Positions 9,122 through 57,434 of a DNA stretch of 64,000 nucleotides are shown here, piece by piece. Position 1 is the stretch's first letter. Each line of letters begins with the position of its first letter. Both the position numbers and the translations under genes were made by a program. The DNA comes from Candidatus Wolfebacteria bacterium GW2011_GWE2_44_13 (lineage in GTDB: Bacteria > Patescibacteriota > Minisyncoccia > UBA6257 > UBA9933), in NCBI GenBank assembly GCA_001000675.1, contig LCHW01000003.1, positions 67,873 through 131,872 on the forward strand, in the 5' to 3' direction. The notes below the pieces were generated by a model. That model was not told the origin of the DNA. It did not search any database and saw nothing but the letters and a program-made list of their open reading frames with translations.

Positions 9122-9146
9122 TAATCGTAGTGGATTCCCTCCTTCG
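9122..9146. repeat. REP-like palindromic repeat copy GGATTCCCTCCTTCGCGGGAATGAC (a diverged second hairpin at 9212..9240 ends in the same GGAATGAC)
   Basis: Near-identical copies at 37427, 41950, 41985, 53244, 57375 and 57411. Stem ATTCCCGC/GCGGGAAT. Confidence 0.8.
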
Positions 9147-9247
9147 CGGGAATGACGCTTCGAGAGCAAATTCCTCGACACCCGGCGCATTGCACGCTCG
9201 TGTACTCGTTAGCAATGCCGAGGGTCAAGCTCGGAATGACAGAAAAT

Positions 9248-10561
9248 TTAAAACGTTAATAATTTTTCAAACCGCTCCTTATCTTTAAAAGGGCCAATGA
9301 TTGCAAGGTTAAGGCCCTCGTTCTTCACAATGTCTTTTGCGACTGCCTGTATCTGTTCTGCGGTTACTTCTTGCGTTTTTTGTATCAACTCCTCAGGGCT
9401 CATCATCTTATGCTCTAACACCTCCTGAGAGCCATAGAAACCAGCCCATTGATTTGATGTTTCGAGGCCTAATACTAATCCGCCAATTAAGTGCTCTTTT
9501 GCTCGTTCTAATTCTTCGGCACTTACCGGCTCTTCAGCCATGCGCTTTAATTCGCCGATAATTGCGGTGATTACATCGTCTATTTTTTTATGATCGATGC
9601 CTGCGGATATATCTAAATAGCCATGATCGGTTGAAAGGTCTGCTCCCGAACCAATGTAATATGCAGCGCCCATTTCCTCCCGAACCTTTTGGAACAGCCG
9701 CGAGCTCATACCGCCGCCGAGAATATCGGTAAGCAATTCTATTGCATATTTTCGCTCGTCGAATAAATCAAACGCGCGCACCCCCATAACCAAGTGCGTC
9801 TGGTCTGTTTCTTTTGTTGTTAATACAACGCGCGGCTTGTCTTGCGATTCCAACGTCTTCTCTTTTGTTCCTTTTGTTCCTGTCGTGATATCTGCAAAAT
9901 ATTTTTTTACACCTTCAATTACTTCCTGCTCATCGAATGCTCCGGCAACAACAACAATCGTTGCATCGGCAACATAGTGCGCTTTGTGATACGCAACAAA
10001 ATCGTCTCGTTTAATGGCACTTACCACATCTTTGCGCCCTGCGATTGGCCAACCTGCTGGCTGATCCCCATACAATAATTCTACAAAAACATCCTGCACT
10101 TTGCGCATCGGCAAGTCCTCCATCATATTAATCTCCTCAATAATAACACCCTTCTCTTTATCTATTTCTGTTGCGTCGAATTTTTGATTGAGATAAATAT
10201 CCGAAACCACGTCTAAAATTAGCTCAAAATGTTTTGGCCGTGCCTTTGCATAATACCCTGTATATTCTTGACTCGTGAATGCATTGTATGAAGCGCCAAT
10301 ACCATCAAGCTCACTCGCAATGGAAAAAGCCGTTGGACGCTTCGCTGTACCCTTGAAGCACATATGTTCCAAAAAATGCGAAATACCATTCATTTCTTTC
10401 GTTTCATATTTTGAGCCCGTTTCGACAAGCACCAATACGGTCGTTGCCAAACTCGCCTCTTGGGGCGCTAAAATAAGTCGTAATCCATTGTCCAATGTCA
10501 GTTTCTTCATATTCCATTCATTATACACACTCCGGTCAATGAGGGAAATAAACCCCCGCAC
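9248..10561 (-). CDS. M16 family zinc peptidase (insulinase/pitrilysin-like)
   Basis: 437 aa. Inverted zinc motif HFLEHMCFKGT near the N-terminus. Two-domain M16 length. Confidence 0.85.
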   Translation of the reverse strand: MRGFISLIDRSVYNEWNMKKLTLDNGLRLILAPQEASLATTVLVLVETGSKYETKEMNGISHFLEHMCFKGTAKRPTAFSIASELDGIGASYNAFTSQEYTGYYAKARPKHFELILDVVSDIYLNQKFDATEIDKEKGVIIEEINMMEDLPMRKVQDVFVELLYGDQPAGWPIAGRKDVVSAIKRDDFVAYHKAHYVADATIVVVAGAFDEQEVIEGVKKYFADITTGTKGTKEKTLESQDKPRVVLTTKETDQTHLVMGVRAFDLFDERKYAIELLTDILGGGMSSRLFQKVREEMGAAYYIGSGADLSTDHGYLDISAGIDHKKIDDVITAIIGELKRMAEEPVSAEELERAKEHLIGGLVLGLETSNQWAGFYGSQEVLEHKMMSPEELIQKTQEVTAEQIQAVAKDIVKNEGLNLAIIGPFKDKERFEKLLTF

Positions 10562-10685
10562 TAATTGTAAATATGTTTGCCCTCGAAGCCGTCACTAGGA
10601 CTCTCGGTAATAATTCCCTTTATGCTTCGCTGAATATATCCACTACGGCAACTTATTGCTTCGCAATCTACAATTAGTGCGGGGG
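10553..10685. promoter_or_regulatory. 17-bp inverted repeat (CCCCGCACTAATTGTAA ... TACAATTAGTGCGGGG) enclosing about 95 bp in the leader of the M16 peptidase gene
   Basis: Seen directly in the sequence. The arms sit at about 10553..10571 and 10666..10685. Confidence 0.4.
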
Positions 10686-10693
10686 TAAAAAAA

Positions 10694-10711
10694 GCGCACC
10701 ATATGGTGCGC
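10694..10711 (-). terminator. intrinsic terminator GCGCACCATATGGTGCGC downstream of the sigma factor gene
   Basis: Perfect palindrome with an adjacent A/T run. Confidence 0.6.
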
Positions 10712-10718
10712 CCTTGCC

Positions 10719-12055: not shown

Positions 12056-12059
12056 GTTG

Positions 12060-19342: not shown

Positions 19343-19662
19343 GATTATTGGTTATGATTTAATGCTTATTTTATCTATATATGGTTTACACACCGACCTT
19401 TGCAGTCCTGGAGATGGTTTTTCGGATACAAAAAACCCACCACCAGGTAGACCTTACGGCCATATACAAGTTTCCCTGTATAACGCAACGAGCGATCCTG
19501 ATGATGGGATCTTTATGCTCGTTGCGATTTTGACCATACCACCAGGATTTCTCCTGATGGGTTAGGTCTACTGGATGATATTTAGTTGTTAATTTGTATT
19601 ATATACTCTTTATTCAGAAAATCCACGCTTTACTCAGCATGGATTTTTCTAATGGTATTTTA

Positions 19663-23694: not shown

Positions 23695-23903
23695 TTTATC
23701 AATTTCACCCTTACTCTCTTTCTCTTCTTGTTCTATTCCCTATGAGGTATGAATGCATACTATATACCTGCACAATTATTGCCTTATTTTACTCCCCTTA
23801 TTAAACATATACTTGTATGCCATACGTGGCGAATACATTTTTCCAGTGTAATACGGTCTGTTCTATGGTGTTCCATCCAACACCCAAGTCGTGCACCAAA
23901 AAC

Positions 23904-23938
23904 AAAAACCACCAGCCCAAGGCTGGTGGTTTTTGTTT
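23904..23938. repeat. hairpin repeat copy 1 AAAAACCACCAGCCCAAGGCTGGTGGTTTTTGTTT (bidirectional terminator-like)
   Basis: Identical to copy 2 at 24511..24546 and near-identical to copy 3 at 25658..25690. Confidence 0.8.
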
Positions 23939-24467: not shown

Positions 24468-24510
24468 TTCCCCGCCGCCATGTCTTATGACCTCTGGCGG
24501 CTTTTTTATC

Positions 24511-24546
24511 AAAAACCACCAGCCCAAGGCTGGTGGTTTTTGTTTT
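24511..24546. repeat. hairpin repeat copy 2
   Basis: Same 35-bp sequence as copy 1. Confidence 0.8.
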
Positions 24547-24599: not shown

Positions 24600-25601
24600 C
24601 TACAGAGCTCTATACAGCTCACCTGCTTTCTCTTTAGCTTTGTCGAAGACGTCGGCCGGAATTTTACTGTAGTCTTGAATAAATTCGAGGAACCACTCCG
24701 GGATTGCATCTGCTCGTATGGGCGAAATTAGCTGCCTAATTTTCCCATCAATGTTCTTCGTAAATACTTCGCAGTCAGATTTCCATTCCCTGTGCTCCAT
24801 CAACGTCTTGACGTCATTAATCGAGTGAATGTATTCCATTATCCGGGCTTCAACAAGTTTTTCTGGTATGGAGCCTTCTTCGGTTCTGCGCCAGTAGTCA
24901 TCCAGCGTATCCGCGCTGCGCGTTGTCGACAGAAGCGCCTGTATTCGAGCCCCGATTAGTTTCCGGGGTTCGGAGTTTTCGCTTGTTCGCTGCCAATACC
25001 TCACGAGGTTGTCGAAATCGACAGCTAGCAGAAGAATCCCTGGAAGGAGCTTCGCTATGCGATTCTCAATGAGCCGCTGCGGTATCGTATTATCAGCGAC
25101 GCTTTCCCAGTAATCCAGAAGGAGCTCCATGTCCGTTATAAGCGGAATAAGCTCTGCCATGCGATTCTCAATGAGCCGCTGCGGCGGGGAATCTTCACTT
25201 GTAGCACTCCAATACGCAATAAGCACTTCGATGCTTGTAACGGACGGGAGGACTTCCAAAAGGAGCTCCGCCATACGAGCCTCGATAAGGCGCTGCGGCA
25301 CAGATTTTGCACTGGTATTTCCCCAGTATCCGCACAACAGCTCCATGTCGGTAACTCCCGGGAGAATCACTGACAAAACCTCTGCCATGCGATTCTCGAC
25401 GAGTCGCTGCAACACCGACCCTTCATTCGTTCCCTCCCAGCACCCTATCAGGTCGTCAATGTCGGTGGTGGTAGAAATCTTTAAAATCGCTTTTTCTCCT
25501 CCAATTTCTTTGCCGATAAAGTTCCCAAGAATGTTTCTTGCGTCATGCATCGCCCTGCTCCTTTCTCTAGTTATTTTTTTAGTGCTGAGATTATTCAACA
25601 C
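24600..25601 (-). CDS. tandem-repeat protein (about 6 x 34-38 aa repeats, consensus ..ELL..YW..TSE.S.PQRLIENRMAELL..)
   Basis: 333 aa. The repeats are visible at the DNA level, e.g. gccatgcgattctcaatgagccgctgcgg recurs around 25050, 25160 and 25380. Confidence 0.5.
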   Translation of the reverse strand: MLNNLSTKKITRERSRAMHDARNILGNFIGKEIGGEKAILKISTTTDIDDLIGCWEGTNEGSVLQRLVENRMAEVLSVILPGVTDMELLCGYWGNTSAKSVPQRLIEARMAELLLEVLPSVTSIEVLIAYWSATSEDSPPQRLIENRMAELIPLITDMELLLDYWESVADNTIPQRLIENRIAKLLPGILLLAVDFDNLVRYWQRTSENSEPRKLIGARIQALLSTTRSADTLDDYWRRTEEGSIPEKLVEARIMEYIHSINDVKTLMEHREWKSDCEVFTKNIDGKIRQLISPIRADAIPEWFLEFIQDYSKIPADVFDKAKEKAGELYRAL

Positions 25602-25657: not shown

Positions 25658-25690
25658 CAAAAACCACCAGCCTTAGGCTGGTGGTTTTTG
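25658..25690. repeat. hairpin repeat copy 3 (CCACCAGCCTTAGGCTGGTGG), also the terminator of pyk
   Basis: 2-nt loop difference from copies 1 and 2. Confidence 0.7.
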
Positions 25691-25695
25691 ATTTC

Positions 25696-36862: not shown

Positions 36863-37436
36863 AAAGAAGTGTTACTATCGCAACAATAAATACTACATTT
36901 TCTATTACTCCCACTGGATGCCATCGAAAATACACATCTCGTATCCAGTGCTCATTTCCTTTTTCTTCCGCCACCTTTTCTAACTCTTCCTCAGACCATG
37001 TCGCTGAGGCGTTCATTGATAAATCGCCCTCTTTTGTTGAGAACAATTTGGATATCTTTTTAGAAAATGGATACATCCACTTAATACCCCATCCAATTCC
37101 CATAGAGTCGTGTATAAAATGCGCCAGCGATGCCGCCATGAATACAAAGAACCACACCGCTCCGAATAACGCGGCGAATACCCCTCCAATACCTAAATAG
37201 AGCAATGGATAATGAAATAGATCACGATGCACATGCGCGTACTTTCCGCCTACCTTGCGATGCGCAATAGCGTGGACCAAAAAATCTGCGTCTGGCAATA
37301 ATGCGAACAAAACCGAGATGCCTACGAGTTGCGCAGACACCTCTATTCCAAATAGGTTTGAGGCTATTAAAGCGACAAATATTCCTAATCCAATGTCTGC
37401 TAGCATGGTTTTATTTTTCTTGCACTGGATTCCCAC
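36846..37436 (-). CDS. membrane-bound metal-dependent hydrolase (YdjM/DUF457-like)
   Basis: 196 aa. LPDADF and HRxxGGxxxH motifs in TM helices. Confidence 0.5.
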   Translation of the reverse strand: MGIQCKKNKTMLADIGLGIFVALIASNLFGIEVSAQLVGISVLFALLPDADFLVHAIAHRKVGGKYAHVHRDLFHYPLLYLGIGGVFAALFGAVWFFVFMAASLAHFIHDSMGIGWGIKWMYPFSKKISKLFSTKEGDLSMNASATWSEEELEKVAEEKGNEHWIRDVYFRWHPVGVIENVVFIVAIVTLLYVIYG

Positions 37437-37451
37437 CTTCGCGGGAATGAC
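37427..37451. repeat. REP-like palindromic repeat copy GGATTCCCACCTTCGCGGGAATGAC
   Basis: Same family as 9122, 41985, 53244 and 57411. Confidence 0.8.
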
Positions 37452-37469
37452 AGAGCTACATTCTTATTT

Positions 37470-40400
37470 TTATTTTTTTATCCCAAACCAAATTCTCTCG
37501 CCATCAACTACTAATTCGCTATATGCGTCAATATGCTCTGCTTCTGGTGCGAACACAATAGACTTCGCACCTACTTCTTTTTTCAATAGTGTTTCGTGTT
37601 TTTTTATTACATCACCAAGCGCGGCACTGTCAACAAATAGCATTATTCTGTCTTTTGGTTCATACCCTGCATCTTGTCGTAGTCCTTGAACCATGCGCAC
37701 ACTTTCGCGTACGATCCCCTCTTCCAAAAGCTCCGGCGTGATGCGCGTATCAAATTCTACAACTCCTTCAACCTTTTGCTTTACGATAATCTTTTTTACG
37801 TTTACTTCGTCTGCAAGAATTTCCAACAATTCTTTATTTGTTTTTAATCCTGCAACCGTTGATTGCACAGTAAGCGTGGAAAGCGGTTGACGCACCTTGA
37901 TACCCAGCTGTGCGCGTTTTGCAAGCGCCAGGCTCGCCAATGTTCTTACTTCGGCCATCGCGATACCTGCCTTCATACTCGCCTTTATCGCTACAGAAGT
38001 CGCGCTCTTAGTCCAATTTTCCAAATGCACTGAGGCGTTCTTTTTCTGATTCAACGACTTATACAGCGCATCGGCAAAGAATGGCGTAAACGGCGCCAAT
38101 ACTTTACTGGTTTCAAATAACACATACGCTAACGTTTTCGACGCAAGTTCCCAATCTTTTTTATCATCCGGCTTTTGGAATCGGCGGCGCGAACGACGCA
38201 CATACCATGTTGATAAATCGTCAACAAATTGCCCAATCGGACGGACTGCGCGATCAAGCTCATAGCTATTCATAGATGCGGTTACTTCGGCAATTAACTC
38301 ATCGAGGCGGCCTAACATCCACGCATCCAATGCTGTTATTTTTCCTTTTGGACGAGCGATTACTTTTTGCTCTTTTCCATACATATCGTAGAAACTATAT
38401 ACGTTCCATAATCGTGCAATTACTTTCTTATATAGTTCATCGACTCCCTTCTCTGAAAACTGCAATGTTTCTGCGCGAACAACGGGCGAAGAAAGCAAAT
38501 ACAAGCGAAGTGCATCCGCGCCATACTTCTGCACCATCTCCATCGGGTCTGGATAATTCTTCAGCTTCTTGGACATTTTTTGTCCATCCTCGGCAAGAAT
38601 CATGCCCGTCACAACAACGTTTTTAAATGCAGGCTTTCCAAATAGCCCCGTTGATAACGCTAATAAGTTATAAAACCATCCGCGCGTTTGATCGACTCCT
38701 TCTGCAATAAATTCTGCGGGGAACTGCTTTTCAAATTTCTTTTTATTTTCAAACGGATAATGTGCTTGTCCGTATGGCATTGAGCCCGATTCGAACCAAC
38801 AATCGAATACGTCTGGAACGCGCTTCATTGTATGCCCTTTGCTACAGGTAAAATCCACCCGATCAATATAGGGCCTATGTAAATCCAATTCATAATTTTT
38901 ATTATGTGGGATGATACTGAAATCTAATTTCTTTATTTCTGCATTCACGATAAAATCTCTATCGCCCTTACGCATTGCAACGGCCTGCTCTGCATTATAC
39001 CCTTGTACGCCCGCAAATAATGCCCAAATTGGATACTCGTGACTAACGATCAAAATATTCTTCCCCGCATACTTTTTATCTATCTCATACACAAACTCCG
39101 CCATACGCTTTTTAACCTCGGTGAGGCTTTCTCCTTTTGGCGCACCTTTATCGAACTTTTCTTCCATCGATGCAAAGTAGGCATGATAATCGGCTAAAGG
39201 TCGTTCGTTAAAAATGCCACAATTTATTTCGCGCAGTCGCTTGTCCGTAACAATCTTTGCATCATACCCGAGCACCTTCGCCGCAATTGCTGCCGTTTCC
39301 TGTGCACGCATAAAATCAGACGCAAAGATTATATCAATCTTCTTGCCTTTTAATTGTTTTGCAAATGCTTTTACCGATGCATCAACTTGCTTCTTCCCCT
39401 TCTCTGTCAAATGTGACGGGGTCTTGGGATTCGAGTTTACGATATTCGCTGCGTTATTTTCTGACTGTCCATGACGCAATGTGAAATATGTGTTGCCTGA
39501 TTTCGGCCCATTCTTTTTTATCTCTGCAACAGAACCGATTACCTTTAACTCTCCACACTCTTGGCAACGCCATACCGGAAGTGGCGCTCCCCAGAATCGC
39601 GTTCGCGATACTGCCCAATCGCGCGCATCAGCAACCCAGTTGCCAAAACGCCCTGTTTTGATGTGTTCAGGAACCCAGTTTATCTTTTTATTATTTTCTA
39701 CAAGCCCATTTTTCGTATCGCGAATTTTTGTAACTTCCACAAACCATGAGGATGTTGCGTAGTTCAGTAATGGTGTTTCACAGCGCCAACAATGCGGATA
39801 CGAGTGAACCAACTTTTGCTTTTTCAACAAATTATTATGATGTGCAAGCCATTTTATAACCTCGATATCGGTTGCTTTATGGTCATCCCGCGGTTTTACA
39901 GCTAATCCAGGGAAATCCACTACTTCGGCCTTAAAATGCCCGTCCATGCCCACATGCTGCACGAATGGCAACTTATTCACCCGAGCTAATTCCATGTCGT
40001 CAGAACCAAACGCAGGGGCAATATGCACTATCCCTGAGCCGTCTTCCATGGTCACAAAATCACCGGAATACACCTTCCAACCATTCTCTCGATTTTCTAT
40101 TTCACCCTTCTGGTAATAGTCGAACATCGGCACATACGCCCTTCCGACAAGGTCCTTCCCTTTAACTGTTTCCAGGATTGTGTATTCTCCTTCAATCAGC
40201 TCCAGGCGGTCTTTTGCCAAAATATAATTCTCTATACCTGCTTCAGTTTTTGCAGCAATTTTTACGTATTCCACTTTTGCATTCACTGCTAGCGCAACGT
40301 TCCCTGGCAATGTCCATGGTGTTGTTGTCCATGCAATAAAATACGTATTCTTTTCTCCCGCAACTGCAAATTTTACATAGGTCGAAATATCATCGATGTC

Positions 40401-40994
40401 TTTATAATTTAATGCCACCTCGAAGTTAGAGAGTGACGTTTCACATCGCGGACAAACGTGCATAGACTTAAATCCTTCGTACACCAAACCCTTATCATAG
40501 AGCGTCTTAAATACCCACATTACCGATTCGGTAAAGCTGGTATCCATCGTCTTATAATCCTGCTCCATCTCTACCCACCTACCAATACGAGGAATGACAT
40601 TTTTCCAATCATGCGCAAACGCCATAACACTTCCCCGCGCAGCCTCATTGAATGTCTCAATACCAATATTCTCAATATCCTTTTTTGTCTGCAGTCCTAG
40701 CTCCTTTTCGATAAGATTTTCTACTGGCAGTCCGTGACAATCCCACCCCCAGCGACGCGTTACTCGCTTACCGTTCATGGTCTGATATCGAGGGACGGCA
40801 TCCTTAATAACACTGGCTAAAATATGCCCATAGTGGGGCAATCCAGTTGCAAACGGTGGGCCATCGTAAAATACGTAGTCTCCTTTCGGCGCATGCTTTT
40901 TAACCGATCGCTCGAATGTTTTGTCCTGTTTCCAAAACTCTAAAACTTCTAATTCCACCTCGCTTGGGGTGAACTTTTTTCTTCCTTTTAACAT
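37470..40994 (-). CDS. ileS: isoleucyl-tRNA synthetase with a ~200-aa histidine-phosphatase (PGAM-family) domain inserted at about residues 497-700
   Basis: 1174 aa. HYGH and KMSKK class I motifs and a CP1 editing domain. In-frame insert: FTLRHGQSENN, SDFMRAQETA, ILIVSHE. The KMSKS motif is displaced about 200 residues relative to canonical IleS. Confidence 0.9.
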   Translation of the reverse strand: MLKGRKKFTPSEVELEVLEFWKQDKTFERSVKKHAPKGDYVFYDGPPFATGLPHYGHILASVIKDAVPRYQTMNGKRVTRRWGWDCHGLPVENLIEKELGLQTKKDIENIGIETFNEAARGSVMAFAHDWKNVIPRIGRWVEMEQDYKTMDTSFTESVMWVFKTLYDKGLVYEGFKSMHVCPRCETSLSNFEVALNYKDIDDISTYVKFAVAGEKNTYFIAWTTTPWTLPGNVALAVNAKVEYVKIAAKTEAGIENYILAKDRLELIEGEYTILETVKGKDLVGRAYVPMFDYYQKGEIENRENGWKVYSGDFVTMEDGSGIVHIAPAFGSDDMELARVNKLPFVQHVGMDGHFKAEVVDFPGLAVKPRDDHKATDIEVIKWLAHHNNLLKKQKLVHSYPHCWRCETPLLNYATSSWFVEVTKIRDTKNGLVENNKKINWVPEHIKTGRFGNWVADARDWAVSRTRFWGAPLPVWRCQECGELKVIGSVAEIKKNGPKSGNTYFTLRHGQSENNAANIVNSNPKTPSHLTEKGKKQVDASVKAFAKQLKGKKIDIIFASDFMRAQETAAIAAKVLGYDAKIVTDKRLREINCGIFNERPLADYHAYFASMEEKFDKGAPKGESLTEVKKRMAEFVYEIDKKYAGKNILIVSHEYPIWALFAGVQGYNAEQAVAMRKGDRDFIVNAEIKKLDFSIIPHNKNYELDLHRPYIDRVDFTCSKGHTMKRVPDVFDCWFESGSMPYGQAHYPFENKKKFEKQFPAEFIAEGVDQTRGWFYNLLALSTGLFGKPAFKNVVVTGMILAEDGQKMSKKLKNYPDPMEMVQKYGADALRLYLLSSPVVRAETLQFSEKGVDELYKKVIARLWNVYSFYDMYGKEQKVIARPKGKITALDAWMLGRLDELIAEVTASMNSYELDRAVRPIGQFVDDLSTWYVRRSRRRFQKPDDKKDWELASKTLAYVLFETSKVLAPFTPFFADALYKSLNQKKNASVHLENWTKSATSVAIKASMKAGIAMAEVRTLASLALAKRAQLGIKVRQPLSTLTVQSTVAGLKTNKELLEILADEVNVKKIIVKQKVEGVVEFDTRITPELLEEGIVRESVRMVQGLRQDAGYEPKDRIMLFVDSAALGDVIKKHETLLKKEVGAKSIVFAPEAEHIDAYSELVVDGERIWFGIKK

Positions 40995-41505: not shown

Positions 41506-41937
41506 TTATTTTTCTTTTTTCCAGAGATCTATGGCCAACAATGCAGTAACAACTCCGATCGTATCCGAAATAACACAATACAGACACCAGGCTTTTATTA
41601 CAAACGCCTGCAGAGCAAATAAGTATAGTGCAAACACTCCACCCAATATAGCCATTGCAAGTACTCGTTGTAATCCTTTTTTTGTCCTTCGTTGTAGATA
41701 ATACGTTATCAGAATAATCGTCACCGCATAAAAAATCGCGCCCAATAATGACAACGGAATGCCGAAAATAGCACTATACGTTGATTGCGCTACGGTATCG
41801 CAGCCTGAAAATGCGAAACAGTTTATTGGGCTTCCGATTATTCGCTTCATCGCCAAATACACTGCATCAGTAAATCCAGCTACACTCAGCGCAAGTATCG
41901 TCCAGACGATTATTGTGTTGTTCTTACTAGTATCCAT
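41506..41937 (-). CDS. vitamin K epoxide reductase (VKOR) family disulfide oxidoreductase
   Basis: 143 aa. Loop cysteines CFAFSGC. TM CxxC (AWCLYC). Confidence 0.7.
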   Translation of the reverse strand: MDTSKNNTIIVWTILALSVAGFTDAVYLAMKRIIGSPINCFAFSGCDTVAQSTYSAIFGIPLSLLGAIFYAVTIILITYYLQRRTKKGLQRVLAMAILGGVFALYLFALQAFVIKAWCLYCVISDTIGVVTALLAIDLWKKEK

Positions 41938-41949
41938 TTTTATAATTCT

Positions 41950-42009
41950 GTCATTCCCGCGGAGGCGGGAATCTATAGAGCACTGGATTCCCTCCTCCGC
42001 GGGAATGAC
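41950..42009. repeat. two inverted REP-like repeat copies (GTCATTCCCGCGGAGGCGGGAATC and GGATTCCCTCCTCCGCGGGAATGAC)
   Basis: The pair sits in the VKOR-dsbA intergenic region. Confidence 0.8.
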
Positions 42010-42022
42010 AATTCAGAAAACA

Positions 42023-42664
42023 TTATTTATTCAATTCATCCTCAACTAATTGCTTCAGCTCCTCGTATGATTGAAATCGAACTTGCGTTTCATTTATAAA
42101 GAACGTTGGCGTTCCTTGTATGCCTTGTGTTCCTCCTTCAGTTATAGCACGTTCTACTCTGCTCGCAAGATCTACTGACTGTACGTCACTTATAAATTTG
42201 GGAATATCCAATCCAATAAGTGTCGCGTATTCTACTATCGATTGTTGTATATTTTCACTCACCGACCATTCTTCTTGTCGATCAAAGAGCATGTCATGCA
42301 TTTCCCAAAACTTGCCCTGCTTCCCTGCTGCCTCAGTGGCAATCGCTGCGGTTTTTGCAAACGCATGCTGTTGTAGTGGAAAATGGCGATACACCATTTG
42401 CACATCATCCCCCTTCTCTTTTTCTAACTCCTTCACGATGCCGTAATAGTATTTACACGCCGGACACTGAAAATCGCTATACTCTACGAGTGTTACTTTT
42501 GCGTTTTCATTTCCTTTTCTCCAATCCGCCGACGATACCGGTATTACTAAATCGCCTATTACTACAGCCGGCTTCGCCACCGCAGCATACATGCCCAATA
42601 CGATTGCGCCAAGCCCAATCACTATTAAAAGCCATATAAAAATTTCTTGTCCTTTTTTACTCAT
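42023..42664 (-). CDS. DsbA-like thioredoxin-fold thiol:disulfide oxidoreductase, membrane-anchored
   Basis: 213 aa. N-terminal TM. DFQCPACKYY active site. Confidence 0.8.
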   Translation of the reverse strand: MSKKGQEIFIWLLIVIGLGAIVLGMYAAVAKPAVVIGDLVIPVSSADWRKGNENAKVTLVEYSDFQCPACKYYYGIVKELEKEKGDDVQMVYRHFPLQQHAFAKTAAIATEAAGKQGKFWEMHDMLFDRQEEWSVSENIQQSIVEYATLIGLDIPKFISDVQSVDLASRVERAITEGGTQGIQGTPTFFINETQVRFQSYEELKQLVEDELNK

Positions 42665-49353: not shown

Positions 49354-50763
49354 TTATAACTCTATACAATAATCACAATTGTTAATTATTTCTTCCCTGT
49401 TTTCCGCTATCAACACCGTATTATTTTTATCGATAATCTTTTGTAACACTTTCATAAGTGTCGGCAAATTACTTAAATGCAGCCCTCGAGACGGTATGTC
49501 TAAAATATATACACATCGATCGCTTAGTTTTTTGGATAGTATCTTTGCTAAACGCACTCGTTGTGCCTCTCCCCCGCTTAAGGTGTTTGATCGTTGCCCG
49601 AGTTCTAAATAACCCAGCCCAACCTCCTGTAAAAATCCTAGCTTCCTTACTACTAAGGAGTTCTCCGCAAATAGCTCCACTGCTTCATCTATCGTCATTT
49701 CTAATACATTAGCGATGGACTTATCTTTATATACCGCACGACTTATTTTTTCGTTCGTTTTTTTATCTCTTTTTATATTAAAGCTAAAGGCCGATTTCCC
49801 TAATCGCAGCTTTTTGCTTTCTGGAAGTTTCGCATATACATCCCGGATACTATCCCATATGCCTAGATATGTTGCTGGAGTACTCGTTGCGACTGCACTC
49901 AACAAGGATTGATCCACAAAATATGATCGTCTAATATTTGTCTTTCCCTCAATCGATTCAAATCCCTTCCTTACTTTCCATGCACCAGCGCCCTTAAATA
50001 AAGCACCATACACAACAGAAAGCATTGTCGACTTACCAGAGCCCATTCCCCCTGCAATACAAACGAGACTCCCTAACGGGAATTTCATTTCTCCGTTTTT
50101 TATATTATTTTTATTAATTCCTTTTATCGCCAGCCATTTCCGCTGCATTGCTTGCGCTTTATTGTTTGGATTCCTTTTATAATCAATTTGCTCAGCTCGA
50201 TTTGAAAATGCATACACTGCGGTTTGCGTCTTTGCCTTTTTAAATTCCTCCATCGAACCTTCGAAAATAACCTCGCCTCCTTTTGCTCCTGCGTCTGGGC
50301 CGAATTCTATCACATACTCTGCGCTTCTTATGATGTCTTTGTTATGCTCTACAACAATAACTGAAGCGCCCATTTTTACTATCTCTCTTAAAAGACTTAC
50401 AATGCCATCTCTGTCCTTTTTTGCCATTCCTGCGCATGGCTCATCCACAATCAATAAGTCTCCTGCCTTTACTTCTTTCACCATCTCTCGTAACCGCTTG
50501 TTATTCGTTTCCCCTAAGCTCATTCGCCCCTGTGCCTTTACTTTTTGGCTGATGGCAAATACTTTCGGCAGCGGTCCTACTTCTGCCTCTACAGAATGCC
50601 CTTGCGATGCCTTAACGATAACGTCGTATATGAGTGACGATTTTCCACTCCCGCTCTTTCCTACTATTACTACTAGCTTATTTAGCGGGATATCGACGCT
50701 TATATTTTTTAAATTATTTGCGGTGGCGTTCTTAATGCGAATTGTGTCTATTTTCTTTTTCAT
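49354..50763 (-). CDS. mini-UvrA-like ABC ATPase (two NBDs, no zinc-finger/insertion domains)
   Basis: 469 aa. N-terminal LKNISVDIPLNKLVVIVGKSGSGKSSL (UvrA-like start). Second Walker A GGMGSGKST. Signature LSGGEAQRVRLAKIL. 4-bp overlap with the downstream PHP gene. Confidence 0.55.
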   Translation of the reverse strand: MKKKIDTIRIKNATANNLKNISVDIPLNKLVVIVGKSGSGKSSLIYDVIVKASQGHSVEAEVGPLPKVFAISQKVKAQGRMSLGETNNKRLREMVKEVKAGDLLIVDEPCAGMAKKDRDGIVSLLREIVKMGASVIVVEHNKDIIRSAEYVIEFGPDAGAKGGEVIFEGSMEEFKKAKTQTAVYAFSNRAEQIDYKRNPNNKAQAMQRKWLAIKGINKNNIKNGEMKFPLGSLVCIAGGMGSGKSTMLSVVYGALFKGAGAWKVRKGFESIEGKTNIRRSYFVDQSLLSAVATSTPATYLGIWDSIRDVYAKLPESKKLRLGKSAFSFNIKRDKKTNEKISRAVYKDKSIANVLEMTIDEAVELFAENSLVVRKLGFLQEVGLGYLELGQRSNTLSGGEAQRVRLAKILSKKLSDRCVYILDIPSRGLHLSNLPTLMKVLQKIIDKNNTVLIAENREEIINNCDYCIEL

Positions 50764-52079
50764 GCGATATCTGTTTTTACACTTATTTTCCCATATTCTC
50801 CATCATACCCTGGCAGGATAGTTACGTTGCCTTTGCGCATATTCATAATTCCCTGCACCACCTGTTCATCCGCATGTATTTTCAACTCTTTTTCTGAAAT
50901 ATGCATCAGTATATCAAGTTCCGTACCACATCCAATAATTAACCGCTCATACGCAGCCCGCACTTTTTTTGTCTTTACGCCAACTCCTAATGTATCGGAT
51001 AAAATCTCATCCAGTTGAATAACGGCATAAAATGGAACGCAATTCTCTGCCGTGCGCATATTTCCTTTTTCTGTTACCGCTCTCTTTGCATCGGCAAGTA
51101 CCCCTATTCTATTAAGTACTCCTACTGTTACCGGCTTTTTACATACCGGACACAACCCTTTATTTTTTTTCGTTTCCTTCGGCGTCATCGATATATTACA
51201 TACTCGATGCCCGTCGTGGTAATACTTTCCTTCAGCGGAGAAAAATTCTAGTGTCGCGATAATACGGTTAGCGCTCATGGACCCCCGCGTTCGCGAGGAT
51301 GACATATGTGCGGGACTGCTATTTATGATCGCGCCCCTAATTCCCTTATATGACAGCTCTGCGTCAAAAATTGTCGCCTCTCGTCCAATTTTTTGTGGAC
51401 TATGCGAATCTGAATTTGAAATCATAGCAACAGCATCTAAGCCGGAACATTGCCAATTCATTGCCGGATCACTAGAGAGCCCTGTTTCTACTGCAATTAT
51501 TTTATCGGTATATGCACCAAAACATTCCTGCAGCGAGTCAAACCCGGACATCGACCCAAGCACGCCAAACCACGGTGTCCATAGATGCGCCGGTATCATC
51601 ATCGCTGTTGGTTCGATATCGAATAGTATTTTTGCTAAAACCTCACAATCGATTCCCAAAATCGGACGCCCATCAGAAACGATATTCCCCCGCTTTCCTA
51701 ACTCGGTATTTAATTTTTTCGCGCTCTCGAGCGATGGCAGCAAAATAATATTGTGCACTCTGCGTGTTTTTCCTCCGCGCGAATAGATACTCGATATTTC
51801 GCCCGAAAGAATAAATCGTGTGTCTGCCACCACGCCTCGCATCGTTGTACGCTTATATTTCTTTTTCAATCGAAACAAGCCTTGCTCTGCAGGCTCTAAT
51901 TTATCAGACAATTCCTTAAACCACTTCGGATGCGTACAATCCCCTGTTCCTATAACGGTAATTCCCTTTTCGCCGGCAACCTTATCAATTTCTTCCAAAA
52001 TCATATCCTTACTCGTTGCTCGGCTATATTTTGAATGCATATGTAAATCCGCAATGAATTTCATATGTGCATAATACAT
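50760..52079 (-). CDS. PHP-domain protein with C-terminal zinc finger (EndoQ-like / TIGR00375-type)
   Basis: 439 aa. N-terminal DLHMHSKYSRATS PHP motif. CPVCKKP zinc motif. Confidence 0.5.
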   Translation of the reverse strand: MYYAHMKFIADLHMHSKYSRATSKDMILEEIDKVAGEKGITVIGTGDCTHPKWFKELSDKLEPAEQGLFRLKKKYKRTTMRGVVADTRFILSGEISSIYSRGGKTRRVHNIILLPSLESAKKLNTELGKRGNIVSDGRPILGIDCEVLAKILFDIEPTAMMIPAHLWTPWFGVLGSMSGFDSLQECFGAYTDKIIAVETGLSSDPAMNWQCSGLDAVAMISNSDSHSPQKIGREATIFDAELSYKGIRGAIINSSPAHMSSSRTRGSMSANRIIATLEFFSAEGKYYHDGHRVCNISMTPKETKKNKGLCPVCKKPVTVGVLNRIGVLADAKRAVTEKGNMRTAENCVPFYAVIQLDEILSDTLGVGVKTKKVRAAYERLIIGCGTELDILMHISEKELKIHADEQVVQGIMNMRKGNVTILPGYDGEYGKISVKTDIA

Positions 52080-52149: not shown

Positions 52150-53220
52150 TTAGGCTTTTGCCTCTTTCTCTTTTACTGGAGCTTCTGGTTCTTTTTCTCC
52201 CATCGCTTTCATCGCCTGTGCGATTGCTGCGTTTGTTTTTTTGCGAATTGCTTCCACCATCTTCTTATTTGCTTTCAATGCTTCGCGTGCTGCTTCTACG
52301 CCCACGCCAAGCTTTTCTCCTTCAAATGCATAGGTATTTCCATTCTTATCGATTGTGCTCATCTTCAAGCCCATAGTAAGAATATCCCCTTCGTAAGAAA
52401 TCCCCTCTCCATACATAATATCGAATTCAGTCGCTTTGAATGGAGGAGCAACTTTATTCTTAACTACCTTTACCGTTACTCTGTTTCCGATTACATCTTC
52501 ACCTTTCTTAATCTGCGCATTGCGGCGGATATCAAGACGAACTGAAGAATAGAACTTTAGCGCACGACCTCCTGGTGTTGTTTCTGGGCTTCCAAACATG
52601 ACGCCAATTTTTTCTCGAATCTGGTTGATGAAAATAATGAGCACCTTTTTTCTGTCTGCGAGTGCTACCAACTTACGCAATGCTTGTCCCATAAGACGTG
52701 CTTGCAATCCCATAAACTGGGCACCCATCTCTCCTTCGATTTCTGCACGGGGCGTCAACGCTGCCACCGAGTCAACAATAATAATGTCGAGAATTCCCGA
52801 GCTTACTAAGCTTTCTAGAATATTTAGCGCTTCTTCTCCGCTATCTGGCTGTGAAATAAGTAAGTCGTTTACCCTTACCCCGAGCTTTTGCGCGTAGTCA
52901 GGATCGAGTGCGTGTTCTGCATCAATAAACGCAGCGCGCCCCCCTTTCTTTTGCGCCTCGGCAATCGCGTGTAATGCAAGGGTCGTTTTCCCAGAACTTT
53001 CTGGCCCATAAATTTCTACGATACGTCCTTTTGGATATCCCCCCACTCCTAATGCAATATCCAACGAGAATGAGCCCGACGGAATAACATCCACGTGTAC
53101 CCGCTTAATATCATTCAGCTTCATAATTGCTCCATCGCCAAACTTACTCTGCATCGATTCGAGCAATTGATCCATATCCTTCACTTCTCCATCCGCTTGT
53201 TTTACTTTTTTTGTAGCCAT
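52150..53220 (-). CDS. recA: recombinase RecA
   Basis: Start at MATKKV (ATG at 53220). GPESSGKTT Walker A. L1/L2 loops. The 53-codon extension in the ORF track (..VIPAKAGIH..) reads through a REP-like repeat. Confidence 0.95.
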
Positions 53221-53243
53221 GATAATAAAATTATTTTTGTAAT

Positions 53244-53268
53244 GGATTCCCGCCTTCGCGGGAATGAC
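53244..53268. repeat. REP-like palindromic repeat copy GGATTCCCGCCTTCGCGGGAATGAC, followed by the GCCCGCGGGC palindrome
   Basis: Consensus copy, immediately upstream of recA. Confidence 0.85.
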
Positions 53269-53398
53269 AGGCCCGCGGGCACTTGTGTATTTGGATAAAG
53301 TGCGCGGCGCGGGGAAGTCGGCGAGGAAGGTGTGCTGATTGTACACCGACCGATCCGACGGGGCTCCATAACGAAGCAATTTGCCAAATACACAAGTT

Positions 53399-54037
53399 TT
53401 ATTGTTGGTAGATTATTTGTTTAACCGTTATAGACTCTTTCCCTAATAATCGCTTCACCTTGAACTCTACACTATTGATTCCTGGCTCCAAGGAAATATT
53501 CTTTTCAAAATATCCGTTTCTGTCTATCGCTATATCTTCGTTGTTTATTGTAAGATATTCTCCTGGATTGATTTTACCGCGTAAGTCGATTGCCGATTCA
53601 TATACAACCACACTGTCTTCGATTGGATTCTGAATGTCAATTGCAGCTCCACCAATATTTTTTTTCACAATAATCGTTGCGACAATGAGCAGTACAACGA
53701 TTGCGATAATCGCTCCAATCTTTTTCCTATTCACTCGTTTAAATGCGAATCGGTTTGCTGGAAGCCTATCCCCCATGCCCGACGTTTTAAGCTCTTGCTG
53801 TTTTTTGTATGCTTGCCACAGTTGCTGCCCCTCGAGCCCAAGTGCTCCCGCTATTTTTATTAAATAGCCACGCACATACGGAGCAGGCGGAAGACCCTTT
53901 TGCTCGTCATCCAAAAACAATACAATGTATCGCTCTGGGATGTCGGTTAGCTCTGCTAAGCGGGCAATGGATACCTTCTTTTCGCGCATCGACTCCTCTA
54001 ATAATTCTTTTACTGTTGTTCGTTCTTCCATAATCAT
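53399..54037 (-). CDS. rodZ: RodZ-like cytoskeleton protein (N-terminal XRE HTH + TM)
   Basis: 212 aa. [20 protein letters not shown]...APYVRGYL. One TM. Confidence 0.55.
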
Positions 54038-56214
54038 TCTCCTTCTTTTAGAAATACTTCACGAGGATTCGCGCCTTTCGACGGGCCAACGATTCCTTTT
54101 TCTTCCATAATATCCAGCAATCGCGCTGCTCGAGCATATCCCACCTTCAACCTCCGCTGTAATAGGGACGCTGAAGCTTTTTCTGCCTGTACAACAACTT
54201 CAATGGCTTGTTCAAGCAGTTCGTCTTCATCGCCGTTTCCGGAGAATGCGTCGAATATTCCTGCGCCTTCTCCATCCCCCTCGCTTGCGGGTTTCGCGTC
54301 AAAAGATACTTCTTCGCCCATTATATCCTTATTTTTCTCCTTAATAAACTCTGCTACTTTTTGGATCTCTTCTTCAGATACAAACGCTCCTTGAATGCGC
54401 TTTGGTTTATCATGGGTCATAACGAGCATATCCCCTCCTCCGAGCAATTTTTCTGCACCCGACATATCCAAAATTGTGCGCGAGTCTATTTGGCTCGCTA
54501 CCTGTAACGCAATACGCGCAGGAATATTTGCCTTAATAAGCCCTGTAACAACTTCTACGGATGGTCGCTGCGTGGAAAGAATCAAATGGATTCCCGTCGC
54601 GCGCGCCATCTGTGCAATGCGCACAATAGAACCTTCTACTTCTTTCCCATAGGTGCTCATTAAGTCGGCAAGCTCGTCTACGACAATCACAACGTATGGT
54701 AGGGTTTCACTTGGATTTTTCTTATTATAACTTCCTAAGTCACGTGATCCTGCGTGCTCAAACATTTCATATCGTCTATCCATTTCGTTTAGCGCCCATC
54801 GAAATACGCCCATTGATTTCTTTGACTGAGTCACTACCGGTGCGATTAAATGCGGAATGCCCGAATACACAGAAAGTTCTACGCGCTTCGGATCGATCAT
54901 AATTAACCGCAATGTTTTTGGCGAGTTCTTATACAGCAGTGACAAAATAATCGAGTGAATCGTCACAGACTTTCCTGATCCTGTGCTTCCTGCAACGAGT
55001 AAGTGCGGCATCTTTGCAATATTCGCAAACATCGGCTCCCCTGTTACATCACGACCAACTGCAAAACTTAACTGACCACTTTCTGCAAATTCCGGATAAT
55101 TAATCAAGCTCCCTAAGCGAACTACCGCGGCGGCTTTATTTGGCACTTCAATACCTACTAATGATTTTCCTGGAATTGGGGCTTCGATACGAATAGGATG
55201 TGCAGCAAGTGCAAGTGCAAGGTCTTGATTCAACGCAGTAATGCGGGACAGCTTTACGCCCTCCGCCGGCTTCAAGGTAAATCGCGTTACCTTCGGCCCC
55301 ACGTTAATTTCTCCCATTTCTACTACAATGCCAAAACTCTCCAATGTGCGCTTAATAATGTTCGCGTTTGCACGCAAATCTCCTGATTGTGGTTTTTCTA
55401 CGGACGAGCGCAACAGATCAAGCGGTGGAAATACGTAATCTTTATCGTCTTGTGTACTTAATGTCTCACCCTTTTTAGGCTTACTCGCTATGACGGATGC
55501 TATTTTTTCTCGCATCGTCGATTCAACAATGATTTCTTCTTCTGTTTCCTCTTCTATCTCTTCTGCTTTTTCCTCTTCCTTCTTGACCGATTCCTTCAAC
55601 GCCTCTGACTCTTCTTCTACGCCCTCCTCTTCTTCTACGACCCATTCTTTTCCTTCTCGCTTGATTCTAATAGGAAGATTTAGCGTTACTAAAAATGAAA
55701 CGATGAGCATAATAACGATTACGATAATCGCTGCCGTATATCCAAATAGCGACTCCAACGCGCCCACCATCTTCCCCATGAATCCTCCGTTATCTGGAGA
55801 CAGCACATCGATCAATCCAAGTCCTGATAATACAAACAGTCCTGCGCCAAAAAAAGTAATTCCGTATATCTTTCTTCGTTCTGATGTCAAAAACACTCCG
55901 CCCATTACCGTAAGGATTAGCGGCAACAAATAATACCCCCAACCAAACAAGCTGCGGAATATGTCATACAAAAAATTTCCTGCTGGACCAGCATTTTGAA
56001 AACCTGCCAAAAGTAATATTACGGCTACCCCAAATAAAATGACTGCCCAAATACTTTTTTTCGTTTCTGGGTGCAATCGCAAATCAGGCAAAAATCCGCC
56101 CCCTTCTTCTTCGGCCTCCACGTCCTTTGGCTTTCTCCCTCTCTTTTTTGCAATAGCTTTTTCCTCCTGCTCTTTAAGCTCTTTTTTAGTCTTCTTTTTC
56201 GCCATTGGCTTCAT
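54034..56214 (-). CDS. ftsK: DNA translocase FtsK/SpoIIIE
   Basis: 726 aa. N-terminal TMs. Acidic linker. Motor with AGSTGSGKS Walker A. Gamma domain. Confidence 0.9.
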   Translation of the reverse strand: MKPMAKKKTKKELKEQEEKAIAKKRGRKPKDVEAEEEGGGFLPDLRLHPETKKSIWAVILFGVAVILLLAGFQNAGPAGNFLYDIFRSLFGWGYYLLPLILTVMGGVFLTSERRKIYGITFFGAGLFVLSGLGLIDVLSPDNGGFMGKMVGALESLFGYTAAIIVIVIMLIVSFLVTLNLPIRIKREGKEWVVEEEEGVEEESEALKESVKKEEEKAEEIEEETEEEIIVESTMREKIASVIASKPKKGETLSTQDDKDYVFPPLDLLRSSVEKPQSGDLRANANIIKRTLESFGIVVEMGEINVGPKVTRFTLKPAEGVKLSRITALNQDLALALAAHPIRIEAPIPGKSLVGIEVPNKAAAVVRLGSLINYPEFAESGQLSFAVGRDVTGEPMFANIAKMPHLLVAGSTGSGKSVTIHSIILSLLYKNSPKTLRLIMIDPKRVELSVYSGIPHLIAPVVTQSKKSMGVFRWALNEMDRRYEMFEHAGSRDLGSYNKKNPSETLPYVVIVVDELADLMSTYGKEVEGSIVRIAQMARATGIHLILSTQRPSVEVVTGLIKANIPARIALQVASQIDSRTILDMSGAEKLLGGGDMLVMTHDKPKRIQGAFVSEEEIQKVAEFIKEKNKDIMGEEVSFDAKPASEGDGEGAGIFDAFSGNGDEDELLEQAIEVVVQAEKASASLLQRRLKVGYARAARLLDIMEEKGIVGPSKGANPREVFLKEGE

Positions 56215-56322
56215 TGTAGCATCAACAGAGGGCTTAGTTCAAATATGCTAAAACTTGTCGTATATACCATATTATGGTACGGTACTAGTAGTAATCATTC
56301 CCAACCCACAGAGGAGTCGGAT

Positions 56323-56622
56323 ATGAAAAAAGTTCCTTGCCCTCATAAGGGGTACTGCTCAGTCGGCAGTAAACGATGCGTCATTGAATACTACCGCAAT
56401 TGTCGAATCCCCAGTATTCACTACATCACAACCACCCTCACTCACGCCGACTATCAACACCTCGACACACTCGACAAGGTAGCGTTTATCAAAACGTGCT
56501 TCGGCGTGAACACGGCCGAGGTGGAGACAACGTATTCCGCTAGCCAACTTGCCCGAATCGTGCGCGCACGCCTCGACATCACCTTCCCGCCTCCTTTCGA
56601 GCACCCCTCCCTACCGGCTTAA
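56323..56622 (+). CDS. hypothetical protein, GC-rich ORFan (99 aa)
   Basis: A GAGGAG SD sits 6 nt upstream of the ATG. Cys-rich N-terminus CPHKGYCSVGSKRC. The upstream part of ORF 56071.. is antisense to ftsK. Confidence 0.35.
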   Translation: MKKVPCPHKGYCSVGSKRCVIEYYRNCRIPSIHYITTTLTHADYQHLDTLDKVAFIKTCFGVNTAEVETTYSASQLARIVRARLDITFPPPFEHPSLPA

Positions 56623-56655
56623 CCGCCGGTCTTTTTTTATTGCGTGTAATTCCGT

Positions 56656-57369
56656 ATGCTATCGATAATGAAGGATGATAGGCGTACAACGTTTCATATT
56701 GGTATCGATGAAGTTGGTCGCGGTCCGCTTGCTGGCCCTGTTGTTGTATGCGCCGTCGCGATCCCCGCTCGCTGCAAGCCTTCGTCTATTATAAAAAAAT
56801 TTGCATCTCGTTCTTCGATGCAACTTCGAGATTCTAAAAAACTTACTGCGCCACAGCGCGCTCTATGGGCTACTGCAATTAAATCTGATTCGCGTATTTT
56901 TTATTCACTTGCCTCGATGTCTCCGCGTGTAGTCGATCGTATCAATGTCACTCAAGCAGCGAATCATGCCGCAACGCGAGCGGTTGCAAAACTTATCACT
57001 CAACTCCCCGCTCCGGCAAAGATTGAAGTTTTTCTTGATGGAGGAATTTTTCTTCTCGAAACACGAAAAATGAAACATGAAAAACGAGGAAGATTTCTTT
57101 CGACCTGTGTTTATACTGATGCCGAAAAAAAATTTTGTTTCCCCGTGGCCACAATCATAAAGGGTGACGAAAAAATCCCCGCTATCTCTCTTGCCTCCAT
57201 TCTTGCCAAAGAATACCGTGATGCGCTTATGCATCGTGTACATAAAAAATATCCCTTCTACGGATTTGATACGCATGTCGGTTATGGTACAAAAAAACAT
57301 ATTGCCGCAATTCACGCGCATGGTCGCACACCGCACCATCGAGAAAGTTTTCTTAAAAAAATCATCTGA
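56656..57369 (+). CDS. rnhB: ribonuclease HII
   Basis: 237 aa. GIDEVGRGPLAGPVV and DSK motifs. Confidence 0.85.
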   Translation: MLSIMKDDRRTTFHIGIDEVGRGPLAGPVVVCAVAIPARCKPSSIIKKFASRSSMQLRDSKKLTAPQRALWATAIKSDSRIFYSLASMSPRVVDRINVTQAANHAATRAVAKLITQLPAPAKIEVFLDGGIFLLETRKMKHEKRGRFLSTCVYTDAEKKFCFPVATIIKGDEKIPAISLASILAKEYRDALMHRVHKKYPFYGFDTHVGYGTKKHIAAIHAHGRTPHHRESFLKKII

Positions 57370-57374
57370 ATGTT

Positions 57375-57434
57375 GTCATTCCCGCGAAGGCGGGAATCCA
57401 GCATTTAATAGATTCCCGCCTTCGCGGGAATGAC
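57375..57434. repeat. two inverted REP-like repeat copies (GTCATTCCCGCGAAGGCGGGAATCC and GATTCCCGCCTTCGCGGGAATGAC)
   Basis: Immediately downstream of rnhB. Confidence 0.85.

Follow-up and report, generated by a model that had tools for sequence, protein, structure and literature searches.

The window analysed here is a stretch of 64,000 nt from the genome of Candidatus Wolfebacteria bacterium GW2011_GWE2_44_13 (contig LCHW01000003.1, positions 67,873 to 131,872), a lineage of the candidate phyla radiation (CPR), and its subject is a family of short hairpin repeats dispersed through it. Judged by sequence, the repeats are members of the family that comprises the Neisseria Transformation Sequence (NTS) and the Ssn-related motif (SRM) and that contains dRS3. 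They behave as resident mobile DNA resembling repetitive extragenic palindromes (REP) and the paired REPIN, present as singles and doublets that fill short intergenic gaps and, in one instance, a protein linker. The host is new, whereas the element is a known one; no new kind of element or system is involved. What is new is the CPR host, the evidence for turnover of sites, a hot spot after rnhB and a copy in frame within a linker, as well as a strong cross-phylum preference for doublets with their heads outwards.

The repeat family and its identity

Seven copies of YGTCATTCCCGCGRAGGNGGGAATCYA are present in the window, three as singles and four in two heads-out doublets (GTCA...> <...TGAC). 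With up to 2 mismatches, the 25-mer GGATTCCCGCCTTCGCGGGAATGAC was found at 9132(+), 37427(+), 41950(-), 41985(+), 53244(+), 57375(-) and 57410(+), and there were no matches in 100 dinucleotide-preserving shuffles. The stem pattern alone has 7 matches in the window, against 0.02 expected from shuffles. Since the same sequence recurs in independent JGI, ENA, NCBI and Logan assemblies, the repeats are not an assembly artefact. A first-pass annotation of this DNA had counted at least nine copies, starting at 9122 and with the last at 57411; the canonical count is seven, the first starting at 9132 and the last at 57410. Its inverted pairing is borne out by two of the copy groups, which a repeat finder recovered as inverted doublets at 41949-42010 (I15) and 57374-57435 (I9). 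The diverged partner that it had placed near 9212 is also real, being a degenerate member of a second subfamily at about 9203-9241. Besides the seven canonical copies there are thus this one variant and one relic inside a gene (51277-51304).

Conservation in the alignment of the copies ends at the borders of a repeated unit of 27-28 nt, TGTCATTCCCGCGRAGGNGGGAATCYA. The forward strand of the element is defined by GTCATTCCC... and the strands of the repeat copies given below follow that definition. Read in this direction, the 28 nt are made up of a pyrimidine, a GTC head, an 8-bp stem (ATTCCCGC/GCGGGAAT), a GRAG loop and a C-Y-A tail. Over 24 nt, four of the copies are perfect and have one and the same sequence; the other three have a substitution at one common stem position. 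The forward strand of each of the three singles is the minus strand, which is G-rich and gene-rich throughout the window. The 28-nt units of the doublets are separated by spacers of 6 nt, and such spacer doublets, which contain no gene, are the main paired form.

The dRS3 sequence has been known from Neisseria genomes since about 2000. It is contained, as ATTCCC-N8-GGGAAT, in the 28-nt NTS, CGTCATTCCCGCGMAVGCGGGAATCYRG (Chenal et al., Nat Commun 2025; PMC11893778). The NTS hairpin is bound as single-stranded DNA (ssDNA) by SsnA, a 94-aa single-domain GIY-YIG protein (cd10448), which cleaves it a few nucleotides upstream and has no activity on the reverse strand, on double-stranded DNA or on RNA (PMC11893778). 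Binding depends crucially on the C that immediately follows the palindrome, and cleavage on the three upstream bases, GTC (PMC11893778). In the window, both the GTC head and the post-palindrome C are invariant in all seven copies, each of which also has the ATTCCC-N8-GGGAAT arrangement. All seven have 3 or fewer mismatches to CGTCATTCCCGCGMAVGCGGGAATCYRG, five have 2 or fewer and one has 1. The definitions used in the published survey were an NTS with no more than 1 mismatch or the SRM pattern HGTCWY N0-2 YYVSBRH N0-5 WNVSBRG N0-2 RNCYNB (PMC11893778). The SRM pattern has four matches in the window, namely three of the seven copies and the in-gene relic, compared with 0.14 in shuffles. Copies that fall outside these definitions have either one stem substitution or T for C at -1. 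No Rfam family reached its gathering score on any copy.

Folded as ssDNA, five of the seven copies form hairpins of -7.0 to -9.5 kcal/mol (z -3.8 to -4.7); the perfect copies range from -8.9, in copy 5, to -9.5. Each whole doublet folds into one long hairpin, with -29.6 kcal/mol (z -10.3) for the first and -34.7 (z -14) for the second. In a comparison of the window and its relatives with only the outer GTCATTCC...GGAATC fixed, the inner three stem pairs are CGC/GCG, TGC/GCA, CGT/ACG, GGC/GCC, GAA/TTC or GGA/TCC. Because there are six complementary inner-stem forms and all three inner pairs are intact in 15 of the 19 copies, the stem has clearly undergone compensatory change. On this comparison of sequences, the hairpin is kept through such changes.

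The canonical copies are all intergenic when public gene calls are mapped onto the window, as had been noted from the sequence alone. Copy 1, a single (9130..9157, minus strand, CGTCATTCCCGCGAAGGAGGGAATCCAC), lies 13 nt ahead of the rpe ATG (9116), with the stop of an M16 peptidase gene (9248) on its other side. A C to A stem mismatch leaves it with a 6-bp dRS3-type stem and a DNA hairpin of -4.6 kcal/mol. In direct orientation with it is the degenerate type-2 SRM (9203..9241, minus strand, TGTCATTCCGAGCTTGACCCTCGGCATTGC), which has the head TGTCATTCC and a CTTGA loop, as in the GTCATTCCGRACTTGWTYCGGAATC copies of the relatives that make up the second subfamily. Copy 2, also single (37425..37452, minus strand, TGTCATTCCCGCGAAGGTGGGAATCCAG), lies 17 nt past the ileS stop (37470) and 18 nt ahead of the ATG of a ydjM-like gene (37406). 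Its substitution is C to T, and a G-T wobble preserves the forward-strand stem (-7.0 kcal/mol, z -3.95). Doublet 1 (41949-42010) is composed of copy 3 as its left arm (41949..41976, plus strand) and copy 4, with a C to A stem mismatch, as its right arm (41983..42010, minus strand). It occupies 62 of the 85 nt between a dsbA-like stop (42023) and a VKOR ATG (41937), 12 nt after the former and 11 nt before the latter. Copy 5 (53242..53269, minus strand, TGTCATTCCCGCGAAGGCGGGAATCCAT) is a single, 21 nt upstream of the recA ATG (53220). Doublet 2 (57374-57435) begins 4 nt after the rnhB stop (57369); copy 6 is its left arm (57374..57401, plus strand) and alone among the copies comes within 1 mismatch of the NTS consensus as published, and copy 7 is its right arm (57408..57435, minus strand). 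The relic (51277..51304, minus strand, TGTCATCCTCGCGAACGCGGGGGTCCAT) was found by the SRM pattern and is translated as MSSSRTRGS.

Read-through of the repeats had been said to generate spurious extensions of open reading frames (ORFs), and this is so for RecA, Rpe and the small ORF 41759-42049. The mechanically called RecA ORF (52150-53379) reads VIPAKAGI through the repeat, and the Rpe ORF (8469-9215) likewise reads through. ORF 41759-42049 reads SFPRRRES...IPSSAGMT, with DSRLRGND and IPAFAGMT occurring in other frames. The suggestion that copies might cluster at convergent gene ends did not hold, as none of the seven is between convergent genes.

Distribution across phyla and the Ssn protein

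Species-representative genomes were scanned for a 20-base core, GTCATTCCCGC-N4-GCGGGAATC. The exact core is present at 120 or more loci, with about 20 phylum-level groups among the matches listed, to which the counts that follow refer. These include Neisseria, Sphingomonas, Devosia, Povalibacter, Chloroflexota, Planctomycetota and Bacteroidota and, from the CPR, Saccharibacteria, Paceibacteria, Parcubacteria, Uhrbacteria and Magasanikbacteria. In a logo of 172 exact copies, the 28-nt borders coincide with those of the unit in the window, with C or T and almost never a purine at -1, and a C-A-G tail. T is found at -1 in six of the seven window copies and in 9 of 10 exact-core copies from loci of CPR metagenome-assembled genomes (MAGs), one from Nanoarchaeota being included. 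Adjacent copies are heads-out in 46 cases, tails-out in 5 and direct in 9. A perfect canonical NTS, CTGTCATTCCCGCGCAGGCGGGAATCCAG, was also seen in a 3.8-kb contig of a MAG named 'Nanoarchaeota archaeon' (locus L093, JAHIPG010000372.1); this is either a mis-binned bacterial or CPR contig or an archaeal occurrence.

The NTS-type hairpin and Ssn have been reported in Neisseria and in Wolbachia and relatives, and the published survey, which was of RefSeq reference genomes, reported mainly Pseudomonadati (PMC11893778). The genera rich in SRM include Rickettsia, and Neisseria, Sphingomonas, Devosia and Povalibacter are named as repeat-rich (PMC11893778). The effect demonstrated in Neisseria is restriction of incoming NTS-bearing ssDNA during transformation (PMC11893778).

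Genes for Ssn are themselves found between repeats of this kind. In a Methylotenera locus (L045) a 94-aa GIY-YIG gene (Pfam E 2.5e-13) is between two canonical NTS, arranged heads-out. Other CPR bacteria encode Ssn homologues that have motifs of their own on either side. A metagenomic Ssn (L136) shares 53% identity with the Methylotenera protein and lies between heads-out copies of its particular variant, GTCATTGCG...GCAATCC, and among its best 120 matches listed are close homologues annotated in Moranbacteria, Paceibacterota, Campbellbacteria and 'Patescibacteria group'. Another Ssn homologue (L214) is flanked by yet another variant of the motif. Because the doublets in the window have the same heads-out polarity as the Methylotenera locus, they would resemble an NTS-ssn-NTS cassette without the gene. 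Overall, the likeness to the NTS/SRM-SsnA system extends to a 28-nt oriented hairpin with a GTC head, the stem ATTCCCGC, a G-rich tetraloop and a C-Y-R tail, in multiple intergenic copies enriched over shuffles and with the heads-out polarity of NTS-ssnA-NTS. The differences here are the CPR host, the T at -1 in six of the seven copies, the gene-less doublets and the lack of ssn in 73 kb.

As regards miniature inverted-repeat transposable elements (MITE), the arms of the doublets act as terminal inverted repeats with the polarity of NTS-ssn-NTS, and no target-site duplication is visible in the flanks. The first-pass annotation had described the family as REP-like, paired and possibly MITE-like selfish DNA. 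That description fits the site turnover, the compensatory changes and the heads-out polarity, and what it missed was the identity with NTS. The evidence supports the reading as selfish or mobile DNA, and the element is classed as a mobile hairpin that resembles REP/REPIN and belongs to the known NTS/SRM-Ssn kind.

The architecture raises the question of whether these are classical REP or REPIN moved by a RAYT (a Y1, IS200/IS605-like transposase). The REP/REPIN-RAYT systems of enterobacteria and Pseudomonas likewise consist of short GC-rich intergenic hairpins whose inverted doublets form one long hairpin, with a single-copy nuclease gene flanked by repeats and presumed ssDNA recognition; the REPIN-like doublets and the intergenic spread in the window resemble them in architecture only. 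REP sequences vary from species to species, whereas the NTS element is the same across phyla. RAYT-type REP carry GTAG/CGTC tags, unlike the YGTCA head found here. REP/RAYT systems use a Y1 (HUH) transposase, whereas the enzyme associated with NTS belongs to the GIY-YIG nucleases, and the sequence tag is a different one. The repeats could otherwise be passive targets of an IS110/Piv-type recombinase, as used by the Nf prophages of Neisseria, where a phage recombinase is known to integrate at dRS3 (PMC1797815). However, among the precomputed Pfam matches of the window and related loci there is no Y1_Tnp (PF01797), IS110 or phage integrase, and the genome-wide association of the motif in the published survey is with ssn and not RAYT (PMC11893778). 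Either of these origins is therefore extremely improbable.

Comparison of Wolfebacteria lineages and neighbouring features

Around the IleRS gene there was almost no common gene order across 80 metagenome loci, so the comparison rests on the recA region. The 80 loci are metagenome contigs carrying IleRS relatives of 40-61% identity; they contain 5 copies per 854 kb, compared with 7 per 73 kb in the window together with locus L126. RecA (KKT43017.1), LepA and FtsZ of the window are identical to the proteins of GW2011_GWE2_44_13, which is in the Patescibacteria/Parcubacteria group. The recA region was compared at one locus in three lineages that share the same gene order. Lineage A includes this genome, GWC2_39_22 (GCA_000993695.1) and DNTT01 (98-99% identity), lineage B includes L130 and L211 (RIFOXYD12_FULL_48_21), at about 73% nucleotide identity, and lineage C is L213 (RIFOXYB1_FULL_54_12).

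The copies are invariant within lineage A and their sites differ between lineages. In the recA leader, the NTS and a 130-nt GC-rich insert are present only in A, and B and C have an unrelated 82-nt leader. The recA trailer in A is 70 nt with a plain terminator, compared with a mosaic of hairpin variants of 450-550 nt in B and C. Just past the rnhB stop, A has the canonical doublet and B and C have a heads-out type-2 doublet, GTCATTCCGAACTTGTTTCGGAATC + GTCATCCTGAACTTGTTTCAGGATC. Beside miaA, B and C have an extra doublet of mixed type that A does not have; in C, one of its arms is interrupted by another palindrome.

The mosaic downstream of recA in B and C resembles a small array of neisserial intergenic mosaic elements (NIME), which contain dRS3 and were thought to be specific to Neisseria (PMC1797815). 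The window differs in having no long arrays in which RS units of 50-150 bp separate the dRS3, and no phage or recombinase nearby. In addition, the NIME arrays of Neisseria are beside variable surface-protein genes, whereas the singles and tight doublets of the window are beside housekeeping genes.

All three lineages have a segment derived from SRM, in frame and at one shared position, in the variable linker of a PHP/MJ0043_C-family protein (50760-52079, minus strand). In B (L130 12260-12430) this is a full heads-out doublet, reading VIPAEAGIQ, and the linker is 27 residues longer. Lineage A retains a degenerate single copy (51277-51304) in another reading frame, and in C the segment is at L213 12340-12470. 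Since linker copies are found in all three lineages, the family is old in the clade and can survive inside a gene. Rickettsia palindromic elements (RPE), reportedly described by Ogata et al. in 2000, are 100-150 bp and in frame in protein-coding genes; the likeness is that a palindromic repeat is tolerated in frame in a surface or linker segment. The insert here differs in measuring 28 nt where it is one unit and about 100 nt where it is a doublet, and one such gene was seen.

Together, the turnover of sites, the compensatory changes, the shared hot spot and the ancient in-frame insertion suggest that the hairpins move and persist over the long term, a point that was left open by the 2025 paper.

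The lineage comparison also bears on the idea that the repeats act in RNA, as terminators, attenuators, stabilisers of mRNA 3' or 5' ends, or modulators of translation. The singles are in the sense strand 13-21 nt before the starts of rpe, the ydjM-like gene and recA, and one doublet is 4 nt after a stop codon. Moreover, the hairpin is found in GAGATTCCCGCCTACGCGGGAATGAC, the published Northern probe for a Francisella small RNA (sRNA), FtrB (Rfam RF02748; PMC3091763), which therefore appears to include an NTS-type repeat. The FtrB model is the only Rfam model with even a weak match on a window copy, the one in the recA leader (53226-53284, minus strand, E 0.083); at 23 bits against a gathering score of 66, the match covers the hairpin only and not the 115-nt sRNA. 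However, the element is absent from the orthologous leaders in B and C, which indicates that it is not needed for expression of recA, rpe or the ydjM-like gene. A role as an RNA hairpin does not explain why the unpaired bases of head and tail are strictly conserved in about 20 phyla, and RNA is not bound by SsnA (PMC11893778).

Intrinsic termination, which the first-pass annotation had raised, was rejected: no copy is followed by a T-tract on either strand, none of the 40 predicted terminator-like sites around the copies overlaps a copy, and the genome has a separate family of canonical hairpin-plus-T terminators (D1). Masking of Shine-Dalgarno sequences was also rejected, the motif being present in only 12 of 55 genes. 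With about 78% of genes lacking one, there is in most no ribosome-binding site for a hairpin to mask. Nothing requires a role at the mRNA level, and such a role is very unlikely.

Several other features were seen in the region. Adjoining copy 5, the GC-rich insert (53270-53398, 129 nt) is bounded by a 14-nt inverted repeat, ACTTGTGTATTTGG / CCAAATACACAAGT. It is found in lineage A only, is single-copy among the fetched sequences and has no Rfam family; the 186-nt recA leader that includes it (53215-53400) folds as RNA with -61 kcal/mol (z -3.5). An intergenic block of about 400 nt (57440-57850, minus strand), flanked by the rnhB doublet and miaA, is conserved in A, B and C. It has an invariant start region containing TATAAT (about 57845), a terminator-like hairpin with a T-run (57477-57454) and nine predicted pairs with two-sided changes, among three sequences only. 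There is no convincing ORF call in it, and nothing in Rfam matches it (best E 0.056). The block is a candidate structured non-coding RNA, possibly a divergent housekeeping RNA. At about 16044-16400 in L130, L211 and L213, between ABC-ATPase and M50 peptidase genes, there are a bAvd-family gene (PF22296) and extra small genes that the lineage A window does not have; bAvd is an accessory protein of diversity-generating retroelements.

Elsewhere in the window, a second palindromic family, CAAAAACCACCAGCCCAAGGCTGGTGGTTTTTG, has three near-identical copies around small genes at 23.9-25.7 kb (23903-23938, 24510-24545 and 25658-25693) and weaker copies at 2767, 30245 and 58855. Its hairpin is flanked by an A-run and a T-run and looks like a bidirectional intrinsic terminator. 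A LOOT RNA (Rfam RF03000) is between hypothetical genes at 19449-19568 on the minus strand, with 75.5 bits against a gathering score of 46.4. The isoleucyl-tRNA synthetase (37470-40994, minus strand, 1174 aa) has an inserted histidine-phosphatase domain (His_Phos_1) in the precomputed Pfam matches. Four copies of a 41-nt segment, spaced 102-114 nt apart and of 68-100% identity, are found at 25042-25412 within ORF 24600-25550 (minus strand), which indicates an internally repetitive protein.

Proposed mechanism and its implications

It is probable that an Ssn encoded elsewhere in the genome recognises these NTS-type hairpins as ssDNA and keeps or spreads them. The putative ssDNA target is taken to be the Wolfebacteria form of the motif, TGTCATTCCCGCGAAGGCGGGAATCCAG, the forward strand of which would be recognised by an Ssn-type nuclease during replication or DNA uptake. 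The interaction with Ssn would then be responsible for keeping or spreading the elements and would account for the conserved unpaired bases of head and tail. The doublets may be gene-less derivatives of an NTS-ssn-NTS cassette, and any effects on mRNA would be a side effect of having a stable hairpin in leaders and intercistronic RNA.

A number of observations weigh against this reading. Ssn was searched for by tblastn with the Methylotenera protein, with a hidden Markov model of 59 homologues at E up to 10, and in precomputed Pfam matches. No Ssn or GIY-YIG ORF was found in the window or in a further 9 kb of the 133-kb ENA contig, which together amount to about 73 kb of the genome, nor in the 21-kb syntenic loci of the two other lineages. 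The best 120 matches of a first homologue search were all from Methylophilaceae, and those of a second were from the CPR with no Wolfebacteria among them. An Ssn from an 'uncultured bacterium' (P0156) was rejected as the cognate protein, as it belongs to a different organism of 35% GC. By the published definitions, one of the seven copies is an NTS and three match the SRM pattern. The two copies with a C to A change at the same stem position (9130 and 41983) do not fold better than shuffles, at -4.6 kcal/mol with z of -1.1 and -1.6, and palindrome mutations reduce SsnA binding in Neisseria (PMC11893778). The canonical Wolfebacteria singles, from the window and three recA-oriented loci, are all forward on the G-rich, gene-rich strand, but this bias is absent across phyla. 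Among the 109 singles in the 120 loci listed, 54 are on one strand and 55 on the other, and no strand bias is therefore claimed. Finally, the copying or moving of hairpins by Ssn has no demonstrated mechanism in any organism.

The main live alternative is that the repeats are true NTS-type orphans whose cognate Ssn was lost or never present, and that they are drifting as relics or are acted on by another factor. The lack of ssn in the 73 kb and in the syntenic loci of the relatives is as expected for orphans, as are the substitutions of three of the seven copies at the same stem position and the degeneracy of one variant and of the in-gene copy. Among genomes in which the published survey counted over 200 SRMs, 19% had no Ssn homologue (PMC11893778). 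However, the search covered about 7% of a genome assumed to be about 1 Mb. The four perfect copies do not differ from one another over 24 nt, and the head and tail bases that are critical for SsnA are invariant in all seven. The gains specific to one lineage at the recA leader (A) or trailer (B and C) point to activity after the lineages split. Orphan status is therefore rather unlikely.

Recognition by a resident Ssn, the preferred reading, has a stronger form in which the hairpins are actively mobilised by Ssn on ssDNA and the doublets are the non-autonomous form of an NTS-ssn-NTS unit resembling an insertion sequence. This stronger form is possible but doubtful. Insertion would in that case favour sites that already have hairpins, the spot after rnhB holding different doublet types, and could enter coding linkers.

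Recognition of the motif has an immediate use in annotation, where it lets annotators mask false N-termini of RecA and Rpe, and small false ORFs with peptides such as IPAFAGMT, in MAGs of the CPR and other groups. For the biology of the family, the NTS/Ssn system is extended to a lineage of the candidate phyla radiation. If mobilisation by Ssn is true, the nuclease would define a new class of 'REP transposase' that is not of the HUH type and that operates in about 20 phyla, CPR bacteria among them.

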